A DNA stretch of 64,000 bases from an uncultured Treponema sp. (GCA_964425215.1 CAYRLW010000004.1:64919-128918); one strand, 5' to 3'. Positions 4,207-50,399 are shown, counted from the stretch's first letter. Program-made: numbers and translations. The notes: generated by a model not told the origin, from the sequence alone.

Positions 4207-4274
4207 CGCCCCTGAAAGGGTGGATCAAGGTTTTAGCCGTGGTTCACCCTTCCACGGTATCACCCGTAGGGTAC

Positions 4275-4318
4275 AAAAAAGCGGTTCCAGAAAACCAATC
4301 TGGAACCGCTTCCTTTTA
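4275..4318. terminator. hairpin between convergent genes, likely bidirectional terminator
   Basis: aagcggttccag-aaaaccaat-ctggaaccgctt 12-bp perfect stem; A-run upstream and T-run downstream, so a U-tract follows on the minus strand too. Confidence 0.5.
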
Positions 4319-4362: not shown

Positions 4363-4929
4363 TTATTCGTCCCGGTATTCGCTTTGAAATGACATGGTGG
4401 CTTTTACTATTTCCACGGTTCGTTTGGCTGCCCGTTTGGCGTCCGCCATGGGGACTGCGGCTTCTTTGTTGTAGGTTTTTTCAAAAAATATCGCCAGGGT
4501 GTCAAAGAGATCCGGAAGCCGGTAGAAGACAAGAGCGAAGTTTATACCCGTGGGCTTGAGGATGGTAAACGAGGAAAAGGAAACGATGGGTTCCTTGGCG
4601 ATCATGATACGGGTCTGATTTTTTGCCACCAGCTGTTCCAGTTCGCTAAAACGTAGGGGAATTTGATCCGCGCTGGATCGAACGTAGGGTTCTATCGCCT
4701 TGTTAGGGTAATTGGGCGGTTCGATCAGCACGTGGATCTTTTTACCGTTTGTCTGAAACGTAATCCCCTCTTCGTTTAAATAAATACTCTTGACCCCCGA
4801 ATAGGATACGATCTCGTATTTTGAGTAGGCCGAATTAGGGTTAAAGAACGAGGATACGATATACCCCTCGTCCTTTGGTAATTTATCCTGCGCGTAGGCT
4901 TCGAATAGGTCCATTGCCTTGCTTGCCAT
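4363..4929 (-). CDS. hypothetical protein (188 aa)
   Basis: ORF with plausible RBS; no family recognised. Confidence 0.45.
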   Translation of the reverse strand: MASKAMDLFEAYAQDKLPKDEGYIVSSFFNPNSAYSKYEIVSYSGVKSIYLNEEGITFQTNGKKIHVLIEPPNYPNKAIEPYVRSSADQIPLRFSELEQLVAKNQTRIMIAKEPIVSFSSFTILKPTGINFALVFYRLPDLFDTLAIFFEKTYNKEAAVPMADAKRAAKRTVEIVKATMSFQSEYRDE

Positions 4930-4989
4930 TGTTCCCTCCGTAATCTACCCAATTATATACTTTTTTCGTTGTTCGGCAACCATTTTTGG

Positions 4990-38702: not shown

Positions 38703-40064
38703 ATGATTTTTACACCCTTCGAAATTAAAGAAACGGTGGACATGTTCCTCCGGTATAAATTGGATATCCGGGCGATTACCCTGGGAATATCCCTTTTGGA
38801 TTGCGTCTCCTCCTCCGGCGAGGAAACCCGGGGTAAAATAAGGGATAAACTGCTCCGCCTTGCGGGGCCGCTGGTTCAAGTGGGCCGGGATATCGAGGTG
38901 GAATACGGCATCCCTATTATCAATAAACGGGTCTCCGTAACCCCCATCGCCCTGGTGGCGGGGGCCTCGGAGGATAGGGACTATACCCCCTACGCGGAGG
39001 TTTTGGACTCGGTGGCCAAGGAACTGGGGATCGATTTTGTGGGGGGCTTTTCCGCCCTGGTTCAAAAGGGGTTTACCACGGGGGATCAACGGCTTATCGA
39101 TTCCATACCCCGGGCCCTGGCCACTACCGAACGGGTCTGCGCTTCCGTAAACGTGGCCACCACCAAAAGCGGTATCAATATGGACGCAGTTCGCCGAATG
39201 GGCGAGGTGGTAAAGGAAACCGCCGCCCTTACGGCGGATCGTGATGGATTGGGGTGCGCTAAACTGGTGGTATTTTGCAACGCCCCGGAGGATAACCCCT
39301 TTATGGCCGGGGCCTTTCACGGTCCCGGGGAGGGGGAATCCACGCTAAACGTGGGGGTTTCGGGCCCCGGGGTCGTGAAGGCGGCCCTGGAATCCTATCG
39401 GGGCGCGAGCTTTGACGATTTAGCCGACGCCATCAAAAAAACGGCCTTTAAAATTACCCGTATGGGCCTTTTGGTAGGCCAGGAAGCGGCCAAGCGGCTC
39501 CACGTACCCTTTGGTATTTTGGACCTTTCATTAGCCCCGACCCCCGAGGTGGGAGATTCGGTGGCCCGGATTTTGGAAGAGATGGGGCTGGAGTCGGCGG
39601 GAACCCACGGAACCACCGCCGCGTTGGCCATGCTCACCGATATGGTTAAAAAGGGTGGTGTGATGGCCTCTACCCATGTGGGGGGCCTGTCGGGGGCCTT
39701 TATTCCCGTGTCGGAAGACGAAGGCATGGTCGCCGCCGTTCGAGCGGGGTCCCTTTCCCTGGATAAACTGGAGGCTATGACCTGCGTATGTTCGGTGGGT
39801 TTGGACATGGTCGCCGTTCCCGGGGATACGAGCGCCGCCACCCTTTCGGCGATCATGGCCGACGAAATGGCCATTGGTATGGTAAACAACAAAACCACCG
39901 CGGTCCGTATCATCCCTGTTCCCGGGAAAAAGGCGGGGGATTGGGCCGAATTTGGGGGGCTTCTGGGAGGGGCGCCCATTATGCCCGTCCACCGCTTTAG
40001 TAGCGACGCCTTTATAGCCCGGGGGGGACGTATTCCCGCTCCCATCCATAGTTTTAGGAATTAG
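38703..40064 (+). CDS. UPF0210 family protein
   Basis: 453 aa; typical UPF0210 N-terminus ([14 protein letters not shown]) and Gly-rich core; pairs with upstream ACT protein. Confidence 0.7.
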
Positions 40065-40066
40065 GG

Positions 40067-41233
40067 ATGGACCTAAAAAAAACACTTTGGGATCGGCGCT
40101 TTTATTTTGTCGCCATCGTGGCCATGGGTCTGGGCGGGGCCATGGTGGATTCCTCTTTCAATAATTTTTTAAAATCCAATTGGGATATGGGGGGACTTGC
40201 GCGAAGCAGTTTGGAGCTACCCCGGGAATTGCCGGGGTTTTTAAACGTCTTTGTAGCCGCCCTGTTGGCCTTCTTGCCCGGAAGAAGGGTAGGGGCCGTG
40301 GCTTTTGCCCTGCAAGCCCTGGGAATTGCCCTGCTGGGCCTCTTTTCTTCGGGCTTTTCGGTGATGACCCTGTGGCTTTTTACGTACAGCCTGGGTCAAC
40401 ATCTGTTTTTACCCCTCCAGCAGTCCATCGGTATGGAACTTTCCAGCGAAGGGGGCGAGGGTAGCCTGTTGGGCCGGGCGAACGCCGTCAAAAACGGAGC
40501 CCAATTGGTCGGAGGCCTTCTGGTTTTGGTGGCCTTTGGGTTTTTCCGTATTACCTTTACGGCAAACTTTATGGCCGCCGCTCTGGTCTTTCTCTTTGGC
40601 GCCCTGGCGCTTTTTTCCATGTCGGCGCCTAAAAGGGATCGGCGGACCTCATCCCTCATTTTAAAAAAGCGGTACTCCCTTTTTTACGTTCTTTCGATTC
40701 TCTACGGTACCCGGAAGCAACTGTTTATCACCTTTGCTCCCTGGGTTATCGTTACCATTTACGGTAAGCCCACCTCCGTCATGGCGGCCCTGTATTTAGC
40801 CGGAGGGCTTGCGGGGGTCATTTTTCAACCGATTATCGGCAGGGCGGTGGACCGGCGGGGCGAACGGTTTATGCTGGGTTTGGAAGCCCTTCTGCTTATT
40901 CCGGTGTGTTTTTTTTACGGCTTTTCCCATTTTATTTTTCCCGAGGCCATCGCCTTCGCCCTGGTGTGTATCTGTTACGTGATGGATTCCCTGCTCATGT
41001 CCTTCGGTATCGCCCGCTCCATTTGGCTTAAAAAAATCGCCCTAAACCCTTCGGACGTGGCTCCTACCTTGGCCATGGGGGTTTCCATCGACCATATTTT
41101 TTCAATCACCGTGGCCCTGTTGGCGGGGCTTCTGTGGGATAGGGCGGGCTACCAGTTCGTGTTTTTAAGCGGGGCTGGAATCGCGGTCCTTAATTTTATC
41201 GCTACCCGGTTTGTCAGCGCCTCGAAGGCCTGA
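40067..41233 (+). CDS. MFS-type transporter
   Basis: About 12 predicted TM segments; MFS-like loop motif (GRAVDRRGER). Confidence 0.6.
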   Translation: MDLKKTLWDRRFYFVAIVAMGLGGAMVDSSFNNFLKSNWDMGGLARSSLELPRELPGFLNVFVAALLAFLPGRRVGAVAFALQALGIALLGLFSSGFSVMTLWLFTYSLGQHLFLPLQQSIGMELSSEGGEGSLLGRANAVKNGAQLVGGLLVLVAFGFFRITFTANFMAAALVFLFGALALFSMSAPKRDRRTSSLILKKRYSLFYVLSILYGTRKQLFITFAPWVIVTIYGKPTSVMAALYLAGGLAGVIFQPIIGRAVDRRGERFMLGLEALLLIPVCFFYGFSHFIFPEAIAFALVCICYVMDSLLMSFGIARSIWLKKIALNPSDVAPTLAMGVSIDHIFSITVALLAGLLWDRAGYQFVFLSGAGIAVLNFIATRFVSASKA

Positions 41234-41774
41234 AGAAACCGAACAGGCTTCCGAAGAATCCTCCCACGATATGGGCAAACTCGGAAATATTGTTGCTTTG
41301 AAACGAGTTGAACAATTCCCGGCCCAGGTAGAGCACCAAAATAAGGATAAAGGTTAGGGGAATTTCCCCCTTGTTAAAATTAGTAAAGGACGCCAAAAGG
41401 ATCATCATAAACACGATGCCCGAGGCTCCTAAAAGGGCGGTGGGGAACAGAAAGGCGTTCAGGATCCCGGTTATAAAGGCCGTGACCACCATCATAAAAA
41501 GAAGGGAAAGGGACCCGTAGGTTTCTTCCAAAATGGGGCCGATAAGCAGGATAAAAGAAAAATTGGAAATCAGGTGGTTCCAATTCGCATGGCCAATCAC
41601 GTGGGTAAAGAGACGCACCCAGTCCCCCCACCGGTGGGCGGAAAAGGTACGGTTCCCCGGTACCATGAACCAATTCTCGGTCAGGTGGGGTACGATCGTT
41701 TGGGATAGTACCAGCACGAGGGCGCACACAAAGGCGTAGGTTAGTACCGTGGGGGAGTTGTATTTGATCCGCAT
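41214..41774 (-). CDS. rhomboid-family intramembrane serine protease
   Basis: GHANWNHL...GASGIVF (GxSG catalytic Ser) and downstream His-containing TM helix. Confidence 0.7.
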   Translation of the reverse strand: MRIKYNSPTVLTYAFVCALVLVLSQTIVPHLTENWFMVPGNRTFSAHRWGDWVRLFTHVIGHANWNHLISNFSFILLIGPILEETYGSLSLLFMMVVTAFITGILNAFLFPTALLGASGIVFMMILLASFTNFNKGEIPLTFILILVLYLGRELFNSFQSNNISEFAHIVGGFFGSLFGFFRPSRR

Positions 41775-41784
41775 AATCTATCCT

Positions 41785-42603
41785 TTAAACGGTTAGTTCT
41801 ATCTCTACGGGGCAATGGTCGGACCCCATAACGTCGCTTCGTATAATCGATTTTGTTACGGCCCCTAAGAAAGTCCGGTTGACACAGTGGTAATCGATTC
41901 TCCAGCCGATATTCTTTTCCCGGGCCCGCATACGGTAGGACCACCAACTGTAGTGTCCCCCCTCGCTTGGTTTAAAATGACGAAAGGTATCCACGTACCC
42001 CGAGGCGGTAAAGGTATCCATCCAGGCTCGTTCTTCGGGCAAATACCCCGGATTCCCCTCGTTTTCCTTGGGCCGGGCCAAATCGATGGGCTTATGGGCG
42101 ATATTATAGTCTCCGCAGAGGAGGATGTTTTTTCCCTTCTTGGTTAGGGCTTCGCAGGTTTCCAGCATGGCTTGGCAGAAGGCCAGCTTGTAATCCAGCC
42201 GGGCCCCCGCTTCCTGAGAATTGGGGAAATAGGCGTTAATAAGGGTAAAGGCGGGAAACTCGGCCAGCAAAACCCGGCCCTCGTCGTCAAAGTCCTGGTA
42301 TCCCATGGTACGGACGTCCAGGGGTTCTACTTTTGAATAAATCACCACCCCCGAGTAGCCTGGCCGTTTTGCGGAGGCCCAGTAGGACCTGTAGGGGGTC
42401 CCCTGGCCGTCCACCGGCTGGGCCAGTTCTTCGGATACCTGGTCGGGCCGGGCCTTTGTTTCCTGCAGGCAGAGCAGATCCGGGGATTCAGTACGGATCC
42501 ATTCGGCCAGGCCCTTTTTTTCTACCGCCCGGATTCCATTGACGTTCCACGAAGCTATACGCATAGTAGAACATAGTATAGAAAGAACGGGGACCCGGCG
42601 CAA
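41785..42603 (-). CDS. xth: exodeoxyribonuclease III
   Basis: MRIASWNVNGIRA, LCLQETK, DxNxxH and C-terminal SDHCPV motifs of the Xth/APE1 family. Confidence 0.9.
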   Translation of the reverse strand: MRRVPVLSILCSTMRIASWNVNGIRAVEKKGLAEWIRTESPDLLCLQETKARPDQVSEELAQPVDGQGTPYRSYWASAKRPGYSGVVIYSKVEPLDVRTMGYQDFDDEGRVLLAEFPAFTLINAYFPNSQEAGARLDYKLAFCQAMLETCEALTKKGKNILLCGDYNIAHKPIDLARPKENEGNPGYLPEERAWMDTFTASGYVDTFRHFKPSEGGHYSWWSYRMRAREKNIGWRIDYHCVNRTFLGAVTKSIIRSDVMGSDHCPVEIELTV

Positions 42604-42682
42604 TAGCGCCGGGGAGTTTGTCGGCCCAGGCCCGACAAACTCCCCGGTTTCCTAAAAATTACGATAAACCCGGCTCCAGGTT

Positions 42683-43168
42683 TTACTTTTTACCCCCCGA
42701 GGATCCCGAACTAGACGACCCCTGGCCGCCGGATCCCTGATTGCCCGATTGGGTTCGAGTCTGGGTCTGGTTTTTGGTTTCCTCTCCGGTTTGCAGGCGT
42801 AGCCGCTCCCTATCCTGCTGGGTAAGCTGGATCGCCTTTTCCACCTTCAGGGTTTTGCCCGCCGCTACCACTTCCCGGGCGTACAGACGAACCTGCTGGC
42901 CCACCGTAGGATCGGCGTTGATCATAACTCCCCGGATTTGCAGTTGTTCTTGATCCCGAATCTGGAGCTGGTTCAATTCCCCCCCGGGGACCATCACTTC
43001 CACCTGGCTCCCATCCCGCAGTTGAAGCATTACCCGATTTTGTACCGCCGACTCGGGAGCCACGATTACCGTGCCTTCCATGGTCGTTACCTTTTCCGCG
43101 TTTCCGTTAGCCCAAAGGGCTCCGGTGGCTACCGCGAAAACCGCAAAAATCGTAAGTATCCGTTTCAT
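42683..43168 (-). CDS. secreted protein with Gln/Gly/Ser-rich C-terminal tail
   Basis: Signal peptide; low-complexity C-terminus; no family. Confidence 0.4.
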   Translation of the reverse strand: MKRILTIFAVFAVATGALWANGNAEKVTTMEGTVIVAPESAVQNRVMLQLRDGSQVEVMVPGGELNQLQIRDQEQLQIRGVMINADPTVGQQVRLYAREVVAAGKTLKVEKAIQLTQQDRERLRLQTGEETKNQTQTRTQSGNQGSGGQGSSSSGSSGGKK

Positions 43169-43282
43169 GTTGACCTCCTGATTGTCCGCTTGATCGATCT
43201 CTTGATAGATCGTTCTACCCTTGTATACTCACCGAGAGCCCGAGGGGTTGCATAAATTTTTTTTGTGATATAGTTAGGGGTT

Positions 43283-43876
43283 GTGGGTACCATAAGCGTC
43301 GATGATGAAACCAGGGATCTGGTGGCGATCCAAAAAACCCTTTCGGGAAACCCCGAAGCCTTTCGTACCATCGTGGAGGCGTATCAAAAACGGTTGTACC
43401 AATTTTGTCTGGTCCGTTTGGGGGACAGCGACGCCGCTTCCGACGCTACCCAAGAAATTTTAATCCGGGCGTACAAATCCCTGGCTACCTTTAAAATAGG
43501 TCGAAACTTTCGAGCCTGGATTTTTTCTATCGCGTTCCACCATCTCTATTCGGGATGGAAACGAAAAAAAAGGGACGAGGAAAAGCTCCAACGGTCCTAC
43601 TACCCTGAAGAAGTGGGGGCCACCAATCCGGAAGAGACTCTGCTCTCCTTAGAAAACGCCCGGGAACTTCAGAGGGCCTTGGGAAAGCTAAAGGAAGAAC
43701 AGGCCACGGTCTTGTATCTCCATTATTTTGAAGGTCTATCCGTAGCGGATATCGCCGCTACTTTACATATGGGGGAAGAAAACGTCAAAACCCGGCTCTT
43801 TCGGGGGCGAAAAAAATTGAGGGAATTATTGGAAAAATCGCAACCCACCTTTCCCTGGGGAGGTATAGGTATATGA
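43283..43876 (+). CDS. ECF (sigma-70 family) RNA polymerase sigma factor
   Basis: Region 2 (RLYQFCLVRLGD...ATQEILIRAYKSL, FRAWIFSIAFH) and region 4 HTH (LSVADIAATLHMGEENVKTRLFRGRKKL). Confidence 0.8.
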   Translation: MGTISVDDETRDLVAIQKTLSGNPEAFRTIVEAYQKRLYQFCLVRLGDSDAASDATQEILIRAYKSLATFKIGRNFRAWIFSIAFHHLYSGWKRKKRDEEKLQRSYYPEEVGATNPEETLLSLENARELQRALGKLKEEQATVLYLHYFEGLSVADIAATLHMGEENVKTRLFRGRKKLRELLEKSQPTFPWGGIGI

Positions 43877-44565
43877 TGAACTGTCAAGAGGTTTCGACCA
43901 TAGTAGATCGATGGGAAGCCGGCGAAACGATCCACCCCTCCACGTTCGCCGAAGTGGAAGCCCACATCCGCTCCTGCCCCTCTTGCACGCGGAGTCTGGA
44001 AGGCCTATTACCCCTCCTTCGCGCCGACGTTTCCCACGCGGTTCTCCGTTTTCCCGGGGTAAGCGATTTTTCCATCGCCGACCGGGTTATGGACGGGATC
44101 CTCCAAAAGGGTAGCCGATCTTCCAGGCTGTCCGGGAACTCGGCTCCGAAGGGCGTGTATGGCCGGCACCTTTCCCTAAGGCCCTTTCTCCGCCCCGGCC
44201 GTATCGGAGCCTTCGCGGCGGCCTTCGCGGCGGTCCTGGTCCTTGCCCTTGGGATTTCCCGGTTTATGGTCAACCCCGCCGTAGCGGCCGCCGCGGCGGA
44301 TCGGGTGACCGTTACCTTCGTGCTGGAGGCCCCCCAGGCAAAAAGCGTGGCGGTGACGGGAAACTTTGATAATTGGTCGGACCAGGGGATACCCTTGCGG
44401 AAGCAGGGGGATGGGAAAACGTGGAAAGCCACGGTTACGTTGAAACGATCTTTAGAGTATCGCTATAATTTTGTGATCGACGGGGAACGGTATATCAGCG
44501 ATCCACGGGCGGTGCTGTCGGTGGACGACGGATTTGGCGGTCAAGTGTCCCTTTTAGACCTATAG
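43873..44565 (+). CDS. anti-sigma factor (zf-HC2) with C-terminal CBM48-like (AMPK-beta glycogen-binding-like) domain
   Basis: N-terminal C..H...C..C zinc finger (CQEV...HIRSCPSC), one TM segment, C-terminal VTVTFVLEAPQAKSVAVTGNFDNWSDQGIPL...WKATVTL...YRYNFVIDGERYISDP; ATGA overlap with sigma gene. Confidence 0.6.
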   Translation: MMNCQEVSTIVDRWEAGETIHPSTFAEVEAHIRSCPSCTRSLEGLLPLLRADVSHAVLRFPGVSDFSIADRVMDGILQKGSRSSRLSGNSAPKGVYGRHLSLRPFLRPGRIGAFAAAFAAVLVLALGISRFMVNPAVAAAAADRVTVTFVLEAPQAKSVAVTGNFDNWSDQGIPLRKQGDGKTWKATVTLKRSLEYRYNFVIDGERYISDPRAVLSVDDGFGGQVSLLDL

Positions 44566-44575
44566 GAGCTCCAGT

Positions 44576-45016
44576 ATGAGGGATAGGAAGTTTATTTTGG
44601 GCCTTATTTTGGTAGGGTCTTTGAACATTGGTCTTTTTGCCATCGAGGATCCTCTGGATCTGGCCTTTTCCTTGGCAAAGAAAAACTGGATTTCCCTCAA
44701 CGCAACCGCTGAACAGGGCGTCGTGACGGCTAGAACCCCTTCTTTGGAGCCCCTTCTCCGTCCCTACGCCCTGGAAATTCGATCCCTGATGGCCCGGGGC
44801 TATTCGGCCCAGGAAAGCTCCGCGGCGGTTCGCCAAAAAATGGCCCTGGATCTGGGGCCTTCCCAGGACCGGCAAATTCGGACACGGTTAAAGAGTCTGG
44901 AAGAAAAGCAAGCCCTTCGTACTATGGAGAACCCTTCCCGCGGAACTTCGGGCCAGGGTCTTTCTTCGATGGGTCAGTGGGGGCCGGATCACCGGAACCC
45001 CGGGGGACGGAACTAA
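44576..45016 (+). CDS. small secreted hypothetical protein
   Basis: Signal peptide; in operon after anti-sigma. Confidence 0.4.
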   Translation: MRDRKFILGLILVGSLNIGLFAIEDPLDLAFSLAKKNWISLNATAEQGVVTARTPSLEPLLRPYALEIRSLMARGYSAQESSAAVRQKMALDLGPSQDRQIRTRLKSLEEKQALRTMENPSRGTSGQGLSSMGQWGPDHRNPGGRN

Positions 45017-45019
45017 AAC

Positions 45020-45751
45020 GTGAAAGCCCAGGGCCTACCTATCCTTTCATGGTTGCGGATCTCAACGGTAATGCTACTTTTAGCCCAATTTTTTGTTCCC
45101 CCGGCAGTGGGCGCGGAAGTCCAAACCTACGCCCCCCTGGCCTGGCTGGACAGTCCTAGCGCCAGCCCCTACCAGGAAATTCGGGGGGAGCTGGAAGCCC
45201 TTTTTTCCCAAGCCCAGGGGGCGGGCCTTCCTGCGGAGGTCCTAATGGATACCCTGCGGGAAGGGACGGCAAAAAGGGTCGCGCCCCCCCTGCTTCTGAG
45301 AGCCCTCCGGTCCGAATGGGATCGGGACCGGTTCTTGCTGTCCCTCTTTCAATCGATTCGAATTACCACACAAGCACCCTTAGGAGAACTGATCCGTCGC
45401 GGATCGGTGCTTTTACGGGGGGGGATTTCTATGGATACCCTGGATGCCCTTTTGGATTATACGCTGATTCTTGGAAAAACCGCCGATAGGGCCTTGTCCG
45501 CGGCGGGGGCGGCCCTGAGGATTGTGGCCATAAGCGAAGGGGACCCTTCCATGGTGGGACCCCTGGCCCAATGCCTGGTCCGCAGTACCCTGGGGGAAGA
45601 AGATTTTACCACCCTCGTATCGGTGGCCCTTAAGGGCAAACGCTTAGGAATTACCCGGGAATCCTTTATTCGGCTTGTACAGGGAACCCTGGATAGGGGC
45701 GGGGGCATTAGCATGGTGGATAGGGAATTGGAACGGAGGGGAAAAAATTGA
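45020..45751 (+). CDS. secreted hypothetical protein (243 aa)
   Basis: GTG start 4 nt after previous stop; signal peptide; Leu/Arg-rich helical. Confidence 0.4.
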   Translation: MKAQGLPILSWLRISTVMLLLAQFFVPPAVGAEVQTYAPLAWLDSPSASPYQEIRGELEALFSQAQGAGLPAEVLMDTLREGTAKRVAPPLLLRALRSEWDRDRFLLSLFQSIRITTQAPLGELIRRGSVLLRGGISMDTLDALLDYTLILGKTADRALSAAGAALRIVAISEGDPSMVGPLAQCLVRSTLGEEDFTTLVSVALKGKRLGITRESFIRLVQGTLDRGGGISMVDRELERRGKN

Positions 45752-46659
45752 ATAACCGTGGGGCAAAATATCTTTTGGCGTTCGTCGTCCTCCTATGCGT
45801 TCCTCTGCTTACCATGCACGCCCAAACCTATGTGGAACCGGCCTTAGGAGCGGACCTGGTCAGCCCTTCCGCCCTTTTTGGGGAGCTTAAGGGAGGGCTT
45901 TCTGCGGAAAGTCCCGCCGAATCGGAAACCTACGGCCGGATCTTCGGGACCTACGACCTATCCGGCCCCTCGGTAACCGCCCTTAGGCCCCTAAAGGCCG
46001 ACGTCGGGGCGGAAACGTCCTTTTTTGTCGGTACCTGGGTTCCCCTTGTGGGCCTGTACGGGGGCCTCAGTTCCCCCGACGGTTCTACCGGTACGGCGTA
46101 TAGCCGCGTATCCTTCTCCCTTACCGGAAATGGGGAAGATGCCTCGATTCTGATGGCTACCGATGGGACCCTGTGGTACGGAGTCGAAGCAGGGGCCGAG
46201 CTCGCGGGTCGATTAGGCTTTTCTTACCTGGCGGGTCCCCTGGTTATCAAACCCCTTTTGGGCGCTTCGGCCTTTTATGTCTCGGGGCTTTTGCGGTCCT
46301 GGACCCTCCGGCCCGCGCTTTCCCTTTCCTGGTACCCCACCTTCCCGCTCCAAGCCGACGTGGGCGGGGGTTGGAAACACTCCCTGGATACCCCTGGCAC
46401 CTCCGGGGATTCTTTCCCCTGGTCCCTCCGCATATCCGCCCAAAGCGCCGACCGCTGGGGTTTTATGGTTTCCGCGGAAGGGGAGTCCTCTGTTGATAGG
46501 TTTTTCGGAACCGTTGAAGGGGAACTGACCTTTGACCTGGTCCGGCGTGCTTCCTATTCATCCTGGATCTTCCTTCGATCCATCGGCGGTTTTGATACCT
46601 CCGTTTCTTCTAGTCCCACGGGGTGGTACCTCTGTAGCGGTGTGGCCTTTAATTTTTAA
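45748..46659 (+). CDS. outer-membrane beta-barrel candidate (303 aa)
   Basis: Signal peptide, alternating amphipathic strands, C-terminal ...GVAFNF; TTG start overlapping previous stop. Confidence 0.4.
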   Translation: MNNRGAKYLLAFVVLLCVPLLTMHAQTYVEPALGADLVSPSALFGELKGGLSAESPAESETYGRIFGTYDLSGPSVTALRPLKADVGAETSFFVGTWVPLVGLYGGLSSPDGSTGTAYSRVSFSLTGNGEDASILMATDGTLWYGVEAGAELAGRLGFSYLAGPLVIKPLLGASAFYVSGLLRSWTLRPALSLSWYPTFPLQADVGGGWKHSLDTPGTSGDSFPWSLRISAQSADRWGFMVSAEGESSVDRFFGTVEGELTFDLVRRASYSSWIFLRSIGGFDTSVSSSPTGWYLCSGVAFNF

Positions 46660-46831
46660 GAATTTTAAGACTTCTAGAATCTACGACCCATAATTCCGGA
46701 TGCCGACCGCCGTACCCGCCTTCTATTACCTCCGATTGGTTGATTGGCTTCGGTCCGACCGGCTTGCTCATTGTTTTATCGATGGTTTTTTGCTATCTTA
46801 TATGTTGAGATTAAAACTAAGGATTTTACGG

Positions 46832-47143
46832 ATGCCCGTTATAAAAGATTTTGGTACCGAATTGGCGGTGGAGGATAATCAAAAGCTGAAGGAACCCGAA
46901 AATTATCGGGTTATTTTGCTAAACGATGATTTTACCACCATGGAATTTGTGGTTCATGTGCTGGTTACGGTATTCCGAAAATCCGAAGCGGATGCTCAAC
47001 GGATCATGTTGGACGTGCATCGAAAAGGCCGGGGTGTCGTGGGGGTGTATACCTGGGATATAGCGGTTACTAAGGCCGAAGAAGTTCATATCATGGCCCG
47101 TAAAGAGGAATTTCCCCTCCGTTGTGTGGTGGAAAAAGCGTAA
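46832..47143 (+). CDS. clpS: ATP-dependent Clp protease adaptor ClpS
   Basis: YRVILLNDDFTTMEFVVHVL...AQRIMLDVHRKGRGVVGVYTWDIA is a near-canonical ClpS core; listed ORF extends further 5' but the ATG at 46832 gives the usual ~103 aa. Confidence 0.85.
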   Translation: MPVIKDFGTELAVEDNQKLKEPENYRVILLNDDFTTMEFVVHVLVTVFRKSEADAQRIMLDVHRKGRGVVGVYTWDIAVTKAEEVHIMARKEEFPLRCVVEKA

Positions 47144-47173
47144 GGGCGACGAAGAGAGAGGAGTAGCGGAACT

Positions 47174-49579
47174 ATGAAAATCAGCCGCCATGTGCAGGCT
47201 ATAATTAACGCGGCGTATAACGAAGCCAAAGTCCGGTCCCATGAGTACCTAACCCCGGAACACGTTCTCTACGCCGCCCTGTCTTTTAGCGAAGTTCAAG
47301 AGATTTTTACCGCCTGCGGGGCCGATTTGGACCAAATTAGAAAGGGCATGGAGAATTATTTTGAACAGAAGGTCCCGGTAGTTCAAAACGCCGAACCCAC
47401 CCAAACGGTGGGGTTCCAAAGCGTCCTTGAACGGGCGGTTCTCCACAGCCAGTCTTCCCAAAAGGATCAATTGGATGTTTCGGATATCCTGGTTTCCCTT
47501 TACGACGAGGAACGAAACTACTGCGCCTATTACCTGCGGAAAGCGGGGGTCAAACGGCTAGAATTATTGGAAGTTCTCTCCCACGGCACACGGTTTTCCG
47601 ATGAGGGGGACTTTGACGTACATAAGGATGAAACGGCCAATTCCTTGGAAGACGAACTCGACGGGGCCGACGACGAGGAAGAGCCCAAAATCGAACAGGA
47701 ATCCCCCGTCAAACCGGCTCGCAAAGGAGCCCTGGAGCGATTTTCCATCAACCTTACCACCTTGGCTAGGGAGGGAAAACTAGAACCGGTTATCGGCCGG
47801 GAGCGGGAATTGGAGCGGACCATTCAGGTCCTGTGCCGCCGGCTTAAAAATAACCCCATCCACGTGGGCGATTCGGGGGTCGGCAAAACCGCTATCACCG
47901 AAGGGCTCGCGCAGATGATCGTGGCGGACCAGGTTCCCCCCACCTTACGGGGCTTTTCAATTTACGCTCTGGATATGGGGGCCCTGGTCGCTGGAACCAA
48001 GTATCGGGGTGATTTTGAGGATCGGATTAAAAAAGTCGTGGACGATATCGTAAAAAAAGAGAAGGCCATCCTCTTTATCGATGAGATCCACACCCTTGTC
48101 GGGGCGGGCGCCGTTTCCGGCGGTTCTCTGGACGCGTCGAACCTTTTAAAGCCCGCGTTGACTTCGGGAAAGATCCGGTGCATCGGATCCACCACCCACG
48201 AAGAATACACCAAATACTTTGAGAAGGACCGGGCCCTTTCCCGACGCTTTCAAAAAATCGATATAAACGAACCCTCCGAATCCGACGCCATACTGATACT
48301 GAAGGGCCTGCGAAAAAATTACGAGGAGTTCCATCGGGTGACCTACACGGACGACGCGCTGGAAACCGCGGTTCGCCTTTCGGCCCAATATATCAACGAC
48401 CGGCGGCTTCCCGACAAGGCTATCGACGTGATCGACGAAGCGGGGGCCTTTGCTCGGATCGAGGCGTATAAAAACGATGCTTCTAAAAACAAAGGGTCTA
48501 AAAGTGAAGGTACCCCAAAGAACCTGGAGGAAGGCTTATTACCCCCGGAGCCGGAAGCCTCCGGGGCTCTGGAAAAATCGGAAGAACCTATCGTCATCGA
48601 TGTCCCTAAAATAGAGACGGTGGTGGCCCGAATCGCCCGTATCCCCGAACGGTCGGTGGGGGAAAGCGAAAAGGATAAGCTAAAGTATCTGGAATTCCGT
48701 TTAAAAGAACGGATCTTTGGGCAGGATCAGGCGGTTTTAGCGGTGGTGAACGCGGTCAAACGGTCCCGGGCTGGTTTCCGTTCGGCGAACAAGCCGGTGG
48801 CCAACTTCCTCTTCGTGGGTCCCACGGGGGTGGGGAAAACCGAATTAGCCCGTTCCCTAGCCGACCTGCTGGGCGTATCGCTTCATCGCTTTGATATGAG
48901 CGAGTACCAGGAAAAGCATACGGTGAGCCGGCTGATCGGTTCACCTCCGGGGTACGTGGGTTACGAAGAGGGGGGACTCTTGACCGACGCGATACGGAAA
49001 CAACCCCACGCGGTGGTTCTTTTGGATGAAATAGAAAAAGCCCACTCGGATATTTATAACATCCTATTACAGATAATGGATTACGCGACCTTAACCGATA
49101 ATAACGGTAGAAAGGCGGATTTTAGGAACGTGGTATTGATTATGACGAGCAACGCCGGCACCCGGGATATAGGGAAGAGTCTTATCGGCTTTGGGGAGCG
49201 GAAGGTGGATGAAACCGCCGTGGACGGGGCCCTGGAGCGGATCTTTACCCCCGAATTCCGTAACCGGCTCGACGCGGTGGTTCGCTTTAACCACCTATCC
49301 CAGGAAGTCATGACCTCCATCGTCCGTAAAGAATTGGACGCCTTCAGCCGTCAGCTCGCGGAGAAAAAGGTTTCCTTGGATGTTTCGGACGAATGCGTGG
49401 CCCACCTGGCCCAGGATGGGTACAGCGCCGAGTTTGGCGCCCGAAACGTGGCCCGCTTGGTGGAAGATAAGATCAAGGCCTTCTTTGTGGACCAGGTCCT
49501 TTTTGGGGAACTAAGCGACGGCGGAAGGGCTAAAGCGGATTGGAAAGACGGGGAATATCGAATAACGGTGGTTGCTTAA
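47174..49579 (+). CDS. clpA: ATP-dependent Clp protease ATP-binding subunit ClpA
   Basis: Clp N-domain, two AAA+ modules (GDSGVGKTA Walker A D1; GPTGVGKTE Walker A D2), ClpA-type linker; directly after clpS. Confidence 0.9.
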   Translation: MKISRHVQAIINAAYNEAKVRSHEYLTPEHVLYAALSFSEVQEIFTACGADLDQIRKGMENYFEQKVPVVQNAEPTQTVGFQSVLERAVLHSQSSQKDQLDVSDILVSLYDEERNYCAYYLRKAGVKRLELLEVLSHGTRFSDEGDFDVHKDETANSLEDELDGADDEEEPKIEQESPVKPARKGALERFSINLTTLAREGKLEPVIGRERELERTIQVLCRRLKNNPIHVGDSGVGKTAITEGLAQMIVADQVPPTLRGFSIYALDMGALVAGTKYRGDFEDRIKKVVDDIVKKEKAILFIDEIHTLVGAGAVSGGSLDASNLLKPALTSGKIRCIGSTTHEEYTKYFEKDRALSRRFQKIDINEPSESDAILILKGLRKNYEEFHRVTYTDDALETAVRLSAQYINDRRLPDKAIDVIDEAGAFARIEAYKNDASKNKGSKSEGTPKNLEEGLLPPEPEASGALEKSEEPIVIDVPKIETVVARIARIPERSVGESEKDKLKYLEFRLKERIFGQDQAVLAVVNAVKRSRAGFRSANKPVANFLFVGPTGVGKTELARSLADLLGVSLHRFDMSEYQEKHTVSRLIGSPPGYVGYEEGGLLTDAIRKQPHAVVLLDEIEKAHSDIYNILLQIMDYATLTDNNGRKADFRNVVLIMTSNAGTRDIGKSLIGFGERKVDETAVDGALERIFTPEFRNRLDAVVRFNHLSQEVMTSIVRKELDAFSRQLAEKKVSLDVSDECVAHLAQDGYSAEFGARNVARLVEDKIKAFFVDQVLFGELSDGGRAKADWKDGEYRITVVA

Positions 49580-50399
49580 GATGAGTCGACAATGGAAAAG
49601 AGGATCCGATCCCCAGTTTCCCCATTTAACGGAACGGGAACGGTTCTCTTTTCCCGATCCCGAGGTTACTGAAGACGGTGTGGTGGGAGTCGGCGGCAAT
49701 CTTTCTCCGGGGATGCTTCTTTCGGCCTACGAACAGGGCGTATTTCCCTGGTATGGCCCCGCGGACCCCATCGTTTGGCATTCCCCCGACCCGCGTTTTG
49801 TTTTATTCCCCGCCAATTTACACATTTCCCAATCCATGCGGAAGGTTTTTAAGAAGCGCTATTTCGAATTGAGCCTGGACCGGGATTTTAACGGGGTTAT
49901 TCGAAATTGCGCTTTGGTCGAAAGGCCGGGTCAAAACGGAACCTGGATTACCAAAGAAATGATCGAATCCTACACGGAACTCCACCGCCTGGGTTGGGCC
50001 CATTCGGCGGAAGCGTACCGGGATGGAGAGCTCGTGGGGGGCTGTTACGGCATTAGGCTCGGGAACGCTTTTTTTGGGGAATCCATGTTTGCCCTCCAAC
50101 CCAACGCCTCAAAAGCCGCCTTTTTAGCCCTAGCCCAGCTTCTCTTCTCCGACGAAGTACGGTTTATCGATTGTCAGGTTCCCACGGAACACCTTCGGAG
50201 CCTGGGAGCCCAGGAAATTAGCCGCCGAGAATTCCTTGCCCGGCTGTATTCCGCCCTGGCCGTCCGAAATTCTTCCATCCGCATGGAATCCATCATCGCC
50301 GGCCCCAACGCCAATACCCACGCCGCTTCCGACGAAGCGGACCGCCGGGGCAATTGGGGACACCGCTACGTCCGTTTCCCAGAGATGGATAGCCTATAG
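49572..50399 (+). CDS. aat: leucyl/phenylalanyl-tRNA--protein transferase
   Basis: Conserved FPW...VWHSPDPR, GGCYG, ESMFA motifs; overlaps clpA stop. Confidence 0.85.
   Translation: MLKMSRQWKRGSDPQFPHLTERERFSFPDPEVTEDGVVGVGGNLSPGMLLSAYEQGVFPWYGPADPIVWHSPDPRFVLFPANLHISQSMRKVFKKRYFELSLDRDFNGVIRNCALVERPGQNGTWITKEMIESYTELHRLGWAHSAEAYRDGELVGGCYGIRLGNAFFGESMFALQPNASKAAFLALAQLLFSDEVRFIDCQVPTEHLRSLGAQEISRREFLARLYSALAVRNSSIRMESIIAGPNANTHAASDEADRRGNWGHRYVRFPEMDSL

Follow-up and report, generated by a model that had tools for sequence, protein, structure and literature searches.

A candidate three-component ECF sigma factor module with a CBM48-fold anti-sigma factor in an uncultured Treponema sp. and other phyla

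Pairs of extracytoplasmic function (ECF) sigma factors and anti-sigma factors are a major mechanism of bacterial signaling, and the inputs of most groups are not known. In E. coli, RpoE is followed by the transmembrane anti-sigma factor RseA and by RseB, a periplasmic protein that modulates the periplasmic domain of RseA. In B. subtilis, the ECF sigma factor SigW precedes RsiW, a single-pass anti-sigma factor with an HxxxCxxC N-terminal domain. Carbohydrate-related inputs are exemplified by C. thermocellum, in which the sensors of RsgI belong to the CAZy families CBM3 and CBM42. These SigI-RsgI systems, in which a membrane anti-sigma factor carries an extracytoplasmic domain of the carbohydrate-binding module (CBM) type, signal by regulated proteolysis, with sensor modules of the CBM and PA14 types (PMC10328401, PMC12203970, PMC6852018), and ECF signaling is likewise tied to carbohydrates in the ECF/FecR-like/SusC-like glycan-sensing systems of Bacteroidetes (ECF10, now ECF240) (PMC7826278). 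Here, we describe an operon of five genes, sigma–anti-sigma–g3–g4–g5, at positions 43283-46659 (plus strand) of a 64-kb stretch of DNA from an uncultured Treponema sp. (the window), together with 84 genomic loci of its relatives (L001, L002, etc.). It encodes an ECF sigma factor, an anti-sigma factor with a periplasmic CBM48-fold domain, and a putative periplasmic partner, g4. With about even confidence, we favor the view that it belongs to a widespread, uncharacterized, three-component ECF envelope-signaling module, including the mechanism proposed below.

The three-component organization emerged from the translation of all of the stop-to-stop open reading frames (ORFs) of the 84 loci, which were searched with the window proteins. 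In most of these loci, across phyla, the gene just 5' of that for the CBM48-like protein encodes an ECF sigma factor, and the pairing of the sigma gene with a cognate anti-sigma gene directly 3' of it is kept in 50 loci. An iterated hidden Markov model seeded with g4 (45020-45751, plus strand; 243 amino acids [aa]) picked up, immediately 3' in 52 loci, a domain some 175 residues long, with E values from 1e-12 to 1e-49, most of them below 1e-27, and with matches that span nearly the whole profile in almost every case. Of the 84 loci, 50 have sigma and g4-like genes together and 32 have neither; the 2 discordant loci are truncated by contig ends. The g4-like gene thus accompanies sigma in 50 of the 52 loci bearing either gene and in none of the 32 sigma-less loci. 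The conserved core therefore consists of three genes, sigma, anti-sigma, and g4, whereas g3 and g5 are lineage specific. A preliminary description of the locus had proposed an outer membrane protein as a dedicated member of the regulon; it is g4 that constitutes the conserved third component, and the putative outer membrane protein, g5, belongs to the lineage-specific part.

The g4 product is a predicted periplasmic helical-repeat protein with a single N-terminal hydrophobic segment resembling a signal peptide and with the motif G-[LIV]-P-x8-K-x2-E-G-x-A-K. In the alignment, P71 and E81 are invariant, and K85 and G135 are nearly so. Its AlphaFold2 (AF2) model is an all-alpha helical repeat, for which a structure search against the PDB returned only designed helical repeats and no natural relative. 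The gene order, with a sigma factor, a transmembrane anti-sigma factor, and a periplasmic protein, is that of E. coli RpoE-RseA-RseB, and this suggests, by analogy, that g4 might modulate the periplasmic domain of the anti-sigma factor as RseB does that of RseA. The likeness is positional only. We considered g4 as a member of the RseB/MucB family and rejected this assignment, since neither g4 nor seven diverse relatives match MucB_RseB or any other Pfam family, the model is all alpha, and the structure closest to it is that of a designed helical repeat. The two systems show no relation in sequence or fold, and the anti-sigma factor of the module combines a ZAS-type domain with a CBM48 fold.

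The anti-sigma factor (43873-44565, plus strand; 230 aa, ATG start) comprises a ZAS-type N-terminal domain with a zinc motif and predicted helices (residues 1-56), a disordered linker, a transmembrane helix supported by both a hydrophobic segment (about residues 108-131; nucleotides [nt] 44194-44265) and the AF2 model (residues 112-131), and a periplasmic CBM48-fold domain (residues 144-230; nt 44302-44562). The latter is the best-conserved portion of the protein in the alignment. The C-terminal 87 residues match Pfam CBM_48 (E = 4.1e-9, 37.1 bits versus a gathering [GA] cutoff of 22.4) and AMPK1_CBM (E = 3e-8, 34.2 bits versus a GA cutoff of 26.8). The AF2 model, built on ten homologues, shows a beta-sandwich at residues 144 to 229, with a predicted local distance difference test (pLDDT) score of 77 to 94 per 10-residue block, and N-terminal helices at residues 4 to 56 with a pLDDT of about 90. 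When the beta-sandwich was compared with the PDB by Foldseek, the closest structure was the CBM of AMPK beta2 (4yee; E = 4.9e-7, TM score of 0.77, 28% identity), followed by SEX4, yeast Sip2, a Rhodothermus GH13 CBM48, feruloyl-esterase CBM48s, and GlgB. Similarly, the family profile searched against PDB sequences matched the CBM48 of RmGH13_47A (E = 9.5e-9). The CBM48/AMPK beta-type extracytoplasmic domain that had been proposed for this protein is thus upheld by profile matches above the GA cutoff and by the fold. In public databases, the protein is annotated as "isoamylase early set domain-containing protein" or has no name.

The N-terminal domain is assigned through its motif. The putative zinc ligands C4 and H31-x3-C35-x2-C38 are all kept in at least 90% of the alignment. 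The Pfam zf-HC2 match is weak and below threshold (E = 0.014, 15.9 bits versus a GA cutoff of 22.2), and the NCBIfam anti-sigma model NF052375 does not reach its cutoff (25.3 versus 100 bits). The only PDB sequences matched by the N-terminal part of the family profile are nevertheless those of the anti-sigma factors RsiW (5wuq_C), RslA, and ChrR, weakly (E = 0.36 to 0.73) and with RsiW first. Judged by these sequence features, the N terminus is a ZAS-type class I domain. In the earlier proposal of a zf-HC2 anti-sigma factor with one transmembrane helix, the motif and the single helix hold, whereas the zf-HC2 profile itself stays under its threshold.

The sigma factor (43283-43876, plus strand; 197 aa, GTG start) matches Sigma70_r2, Sigma70_r4_2, and Sigma70_ECF in Pfam, without a region 3 match, and passes the ECF superfamily model TIGR02937 (97.3 bits versus a cutoff of 42.9), in agreement with its initial identification as an ECF sigma factor. 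The NCBIfam SigW model is the second-best sigma match, yet it scores under its own cutoff, and both SigW equivalog scores are missed (NF007223, 101.8 versus 209 bits; TIGR02948, 91.8 versus 243 bits). By these profile scores, the protein is an ECF (group IV) sigma factor that is SigW-like but not a SigW orthologue. The resemblance to SigW-RsiW extends to the order of the two genes and to the HxxxCxxC domain of the single-pass anti-sigma factor. To our knowledge, RsiW has neither a CBM48-fold extracytoplasmic domain nor a g4-like partner.

The other carbohydrate-linked systems differ more strongly. RsgI systems use a SigI-type sigma factor, an RsgI N-terminal domain, and an autoproteolytic periplasmic domain; we rejected RsgI-type membership for the window protein because its partner sigma is an ECF factor and no RsgI-type Pfam match is found in the anti-sigma factor. 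The ECF240 systems of Bacteroidetes rely on a FecR-like anti-sigma factor and a TonB-dependent transducer, neither of which is present in the window module.

Although the fold is that of sugar-binding modules such as the AMPK beta CBM and the CAZy CBM48s of SEX4, the GlgB N-domain, GH13 amylases, and feruloyl esterases, the residues that contact sugar are only partly retained. Numbering follows what we take to be the AMPK beta1 sequence, and an alignment derived from the PDB structure of beta2 supports the same register at W100, Y125-K126-F127, and W133. In this register, W100, Y125, K126, W133, L146, and N150 of AMPK beta1 correspond to W168, Y198, N199, Y207, F221, and V225 of the window anti-sigma factor. 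Of the contact residues W100, K126, W133, L146, and N150, the anti-sigma-linked domain therefore lacks the full set, while the aromatics W168 and Y207 are kept; it further departs from CBM48s by a family-specific D-D-G-F-G-G motif, by its periplasmic location, and by its fusion to an anti-sigma domain. The same pattern holds in 99 anti-sigma-type family members: W168 is present without exception, and the residue at 207 is W (96 members) or Y (3), whereas position 199 is occupied by N in 52, by Q in 33, and by K in only 1, and the residues seen at 225 include S (40 members), N (39), and V (8).

The loss of the lysine tracks the link to sigma. In a second, independent sample of sigma-linked genomic loci, 45 of 48 have M, A, N, Q, T, or S at position 199, and K is not one of these six residues. 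By contrast, among 332 CBM48-like repeats of 62 long sigma-independent proteins, K199 is found in 278, W207 in 226, and N225 in 176, and in 58 domains from the 32 sigma-less loci, position 199 is K in 29 and R in 18. In AMPK beta1, the W100G and K126Q substitutions each abolish glycogen binding by the CBM (PMC6274970). Since the K126 equivalent is lost in sigma-linked domains and kept in sigma-independent ones, canonical alpha-glucan sensing is doubtful, and the glycan-sensing role initially attributed to this domain is weakened by the N, Q, M, or A found at this position in anti-sigma-linked domains and by the V at the N150 position of the window protein. Taken together with the retained aromatic platform and the obligatory g4 partner, the lysine loss points to a remodeled binding site. 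To judge from the residues, this site may bind some other glycan or else g4.

Two further groups of CBM48-like proteins were noticed during this survey. Giant proteins of 1,800 to 2,450 aa (P0020, P0022, P0034, P0065, and P0076) carry up to 18 tandem copies of the domain and, unlike the anti-sigma copies, keep all of the AMPK-type sugar-contact residues, so that they are probably glycan binders. In Gemmatimonadota, the anti-sigma and g4-like genes are separated by a gene for a second secreted CBM48-like protein, about 370 aa long (L019, 5477-6586; L030, 5310-6440; and similar loci); like the anti-sigma factor, this protein has no K at the K126-equivalent position.

The architecture is widespread. 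A word-indexed search returned few full-length relatives of the anti-sigma factor. An exhaustive profile search across 1.84 billion cluster representatives (50%-identity clusters) gave 16,017 matches at an E value of ≤1e-3 and 498 at ≤1e-30. Many of the best 150 matches are full length, at 200 to 270 aa. Among 98 short proteins gathered, HxxxCxxC lies near the N terminus in 90, and 80 have both the motif and a transmembrane-like segment. Scanning one genome for each species yielded at least 351 relatives; of these, the 80 best belong to Spirochaetota (Treponemataceae, Pleomorphochaeta, and Sediminispirochaetaceae), Gemmatimonadota, Nitrospirota, Acidobacteriota, deltaproteobacterial/Myxococcota metagenome-assembled genomes, and others. 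With hundreds of 50%-identity clusters over many phyla, this design can no longer be called unusual, as it was when the Treponema locus was first described. In the literature, we found no description of a CBM48/AMPK1_CBM-type domain on an anti-sigma factor or in a sigma system; such a domain is unmentioned in the main text of the ECF reclassification paper and in the class I anti-sigma paper, and a search on Treponema ECF systems returned nothing relevant. The overall logic of the module is conventional; the cross-phylum g4 partner and the switch from K to non-K residues are the features that merit a test. The module offers a testable case in which signaling has co-opted a carbohydrate-binding fold, is present in many poorly studied phyla, and is experimentally tractable through its conserved third partner, the lysine switch that marks sigma-linked versus sigma-independent copies, and a predicted target promoter.

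The target promoter was sought by scanning the 64-kb window, with shuffled controls, for G[CA]AACC-N15-18-GTATA. Exactly two matches were found, versus 0.11 expected from shuffles, and both are GCAACC-N17-GTATA sites located at the sigma gene. One (43224..43251, minus strand) faces the divergent gene; the other (43840..43867, plus strand) is embedded in the 3'-terminal part of the sigma gene and stops 5 nt short of the anti-sigma ATG. The divergent-strand motif recurs with the same spacing but a different spacer sequence in L001-L004, L006, L012, and L014, with a GAAACC-N16 variant in L010, and the internal motif recurs in L001-L004, L005, and L007-L010; the positions are repeated in some ten independent loci. 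When eight loci are aligned, G-AACC and GTATA alone show no variation. The free spacer between these invariant boxes speaks for a promoter and against a coding constraint. Relatives also carry TGAAAC-N16-CGTATA upstream of their sigma genes (L007-L009, with a near-match in L010), which is of the SigW consensus type, the ECF-class AAC/(C)GTA form of B. subtilis (PMC5758882). Unlike in these relatives and in the SigW system, the window motif is located inside the sigma 3' end and on the divergent strand, not upstream of sigma. A relaxed promoter scan of the window yielded nothing beyond the two exact sites (8 matches versus 3.2 expected, 4 of them being those two sites).

We discarded the possibility of an autoregulatory ECF promoter ahead of position 43283 on the plus strand, where a sigma70-like TTGCAT-N15-TGATATAGT is all that is present; the GGTTGC sequence reads as the ECF −35 element of the opposite strand. 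The extended −10-like element TGATATAGT (43266..43274, plus strand) precedes the sigma GTG by 8 nt, and TTGCAT is located 15 nt upstream of this element. Related elements are found in relatives: L003, L012, and L014 have TGCTATA[CG]T 7 to 10 nt ahead of their sigma start codons, and L005 has CGCTATACT. An element this close to the start codon cannot accommodate a leader of normal length; the sigma mRNA may have no leader or almost none. These elements suggest that sigma is expressed from a housekeeping promoter, while anti-sigma-g3-g4-g5 and the divergent gene would be sigma dependent. The idea of a local envelope regulon, raised in the preliminary description, thus gains support from the two predicted ECF-class promoters; as for the ECF motif expected there, it was found facing the divergent gene and before the anti-sigma gene, and none lies upstream of 43283 on the plus strand.

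Other promoter-like features were observed around the module. In Pleomorphochaeta (L007), three copies of GAAACC-N16-CGTATA occur upstream of sigma (4262-4288), inside sigma (4557-4583), and before the anti-sigma gene (4944-4970), and its sigma factor is predicted to be autoregulated, unlike that of the window. Compared with window positions 43255-43265, L001 (5200-5280) and L002 have an insertion of about 75 to 90 bp with a GCTGTCCC...GGGACAGC hairpin between GGTTGC and the sigma start. Within the CBM48-coding part of the window anti-sigma gene, a near-perfect sigma70 consensus, TTGAAA-18-TATAAT (44440-44469; 11 of 12 matches), could be an internal promoter for g3-g5 or a chance occurrence. 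In a de novo count of bipartite motifs over the 250 nt upstream of sigma in 37 non-spirochaete sigma-linked loci, GTGAC-N15-18-GTCT/CGTC was present in at most 11 loci versus 8 for the best shuffled pair; GTGAC...GTCT is a possible promoter of the high-GC branch.

These elements can be assembled into a working model. At rest, the single-pass anti-sigma factor would use its ZAS-type N-terminal domain to tether the SigW-like ECF sigma factor to the inner membrane. The input module would be the periplasmic CBM48-fold domain, of presumed sugar-binding ancestry, in which W168 and Y207 are kept and the Lys and (here) Asn contacts are lost. By analogy with RseB and RseA, this domain most likely works with g4 and would sense a noncanonical glycan or the state of g4. 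The signal would free sigma, presumably via regulated proteolysis of the anti-sigma factor, regulated intramembrane proteolysis being the general behavior of transmembrane anti-sigma factors (PMC10202637). Free sigma would then transcribe from the two GCAACC-N17-GTATA promoters the gene for the divergent secreted protein and anti-sigma-g3-g4-g5, providing negative feedback along with an envelope output that includes a candidate outer membrane protein. A bolder version, in which the module is a cross-phylum, hitherto undescribed three-component ECF system whose ancestrally sugar-binding CBM48 has been repurposed through the lysine loss to dock g4, the latter representing a new class of RseB-like cosensors that control anti-sigma proteolysis, is put forward tentatively, as a possibility that we ourselves find rather doubtful.

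Several observations weigh against this model. W168 is invariant and the second aromatic nearly so, which leaves a glycan as a possible ligand, and a CBM48 cocrystallized with xylobiose is known (8bf3). Co-occurrence is no proof that g4 touches the CBM48-fold domain, and the g4 protein might just as well belong to the output; moreover, the g4 structural model rests on only 14 sequences. Finally, the promoter motifs are predictions, and the −10 element in the window is A/G-GTATA rather than CGTA.

Part of this evidence bears on a different explanation, in which the CBM48-like domain directly binds a polysaccharide (alpha-glucan/maltodextrin, peptidoglycan strands, or another envelope glycan) and alone gates sigma release, g4 being a mere product of the regulon. 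The above-threshold CBM_48 and AMPK1_CBM matches are what would be expected of such a sensor, the closest folds are sugar-binding CBM48s, several of them solved with ligand, all 99 family members keep the W100 equivalent and have W or Y at the position of W133, and RsgI provides a precedent for a polysaccharide-sensing anti-sigma factor (PMC10328401, PMC6852018). We nonetheless consider direct glycan gating unlikely. The systematic replacement of the K126 equivalent in sigma-linked domains, set against its retention in sigma-independent ones, affects the very residue whose change to Q abolishes glycogen binding by AMPK (PMC6274970), and the window protein has V at the N150 position. Glycogen is cytoplasmic, whereas the CBM48-fold domain is periplasmic, and the conserved neighborhood has no carbohydrate-utilization genes. 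In addition, the perfect co-occurrence of g4 would be left unexplained.

The retention of the four putative zinc ligands (C4, H31, C35, and C38) in at least 90% of sequences, and of HxxxCxxC in 90 of 98 short proteins, would also suit a cytoplasmic or redox signal, with sigma freed by oxidation of the ZAS zinc site as in RsrA-type factors and with the CBM48-fold domain serving only to anchor or localize the protein. This is improbable, as many sigma-linked Gemmatimonadota relatives lack the Cys motif yet have the CBM48-fold domain and g4, and the most conserved portion of the anti-sigma factor is the periplasmic one; moreover, membrane-bound ZAS proteins such as RsiW are not known to be redox sensors. 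As for an accidental juxtaposition, with the CBM48-like match or the promoter motifs arising by chance, it could draw on the subthreshold profile matches behind the N-terminal anti-sigma assignment. It is effectively refuted by the gene order kept across phyla, by profile matches that exceed curated thresholds, and by a motif that occurs twice versus 0.11 expected and is placed alike in some ten independent loci.

Around the three-gene core, the remaining genes vary between lineages. The codirectional window genes are tightly packed, with a 4-nt overlap between sigma and anti-sigma, gaps of 10 and then 3 nt, and a 4-nt overlap between g4 and g5, and ORF calling recovered the five genes as they had originally been reported, with 4-nt overlaps or gaps of ≤10 nt. 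An identical five-gene order occurs in two metagenomic relatives, whose anti-sigma factors are 64% and 44% identical to the window protein. The g3 product (44576-45016, plus strand; 146 aa) is predicted to be secreted or membrane anchored and has homologues only in L001 (67% identity) and L003 (26%). The g5 product (45748-46659, plus strand; 303 aa) is Ser/Gly/aromatic rich, with 12.9% aromatic residues, a dominant beta-amphipathic moment, and a C-terminal ...GVAFNF, and is a plausible candidate outer membrane beta-barrel; its homologues are restricted to close relatives, plus L003 and a weak match in L005. Both g3 and g5 have one N-terminal hydrophobic segment resembling a signal peptide. Of the three secreted or outer membrane proteins proposed early on, the signal-like N termini of g3, g4, and g5 fit, and the g5 barrel is plausible from its sequence features. 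Profile-profile comparisons detected no homology to g3 in the proteins of roughly 200 aa at its position in L007, L009, L010, and L013, nor to g5 in the g5-position proteins of L007-L010 (hhalign probability, 0.5%). The proteins at these positions in other spirochaetes (L007-L010) are likewise secreted and comparable in size. Outside close relatives, the five-gene layout is therefore only positionally conserved.

The divergent gene, "up" (42683..43168, minus strand), encodes a 161-aa predicted secreted protein with an N-terminal hydrophobic segment, a beta-rich composition, and a Gly/Ser/Gln-rich tail. An AGGAGG sequence lies 6 nt before its ATG, downstream of the promoter motif, with a leader of about 50 nt, and the gene is a predicted member of the regulon. 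Its homologues are found at the same position in L001-L004. Neither this protein nor those encoded by g3, g4, and g5 scored above threshold against Pfam or NCBIfam. Elsewhere, the ECF-type promoter faces other divergent genes, encoding an SCO1/SenC-like thiol-disulfide protein (CxxxC) in L006 (3370-4140, minus strand), a 304-aa lipoprotein in L010 (176-1090, minus strand), and a small helical secreted protein in L014 (3544-3990, minus strand). Since the divergent target varies by genome, the core module seems to be wired to variable envelope outputs. Low-complexity C-terminal tails rich in Gly, Ser, Gln, and Pro recur in the divergent gene (43100-43168, minus strand), in g3 (44970-45016), and in the g4-like proteins of L017, L019, L021, L030, and L033.

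No RNA family was matched when window positions 42000-47500 were scanned with Rfam. The neighborhood of the module is conserved and of a housekeeping type, with genes for a DUF711 protein, an MFS transporter, a rhomboid protein, and exonuclease III upstream (38703-43168) and for ClpS, ClpA, and a Leu/Phe-tRNA-protein transferase downstream (46700-50399). The two metagenomic relatives share these neighbors, with xth, rhomboid, and the small divergent gene upstream and ClpS and ClpA downstream. No carbohydrate-utilization genes adjoin the module in the window or in these two relatives, with one exception in L001, where a gene for a SorC-type "Sugar-bind" regulator comes right after the transferase gene.

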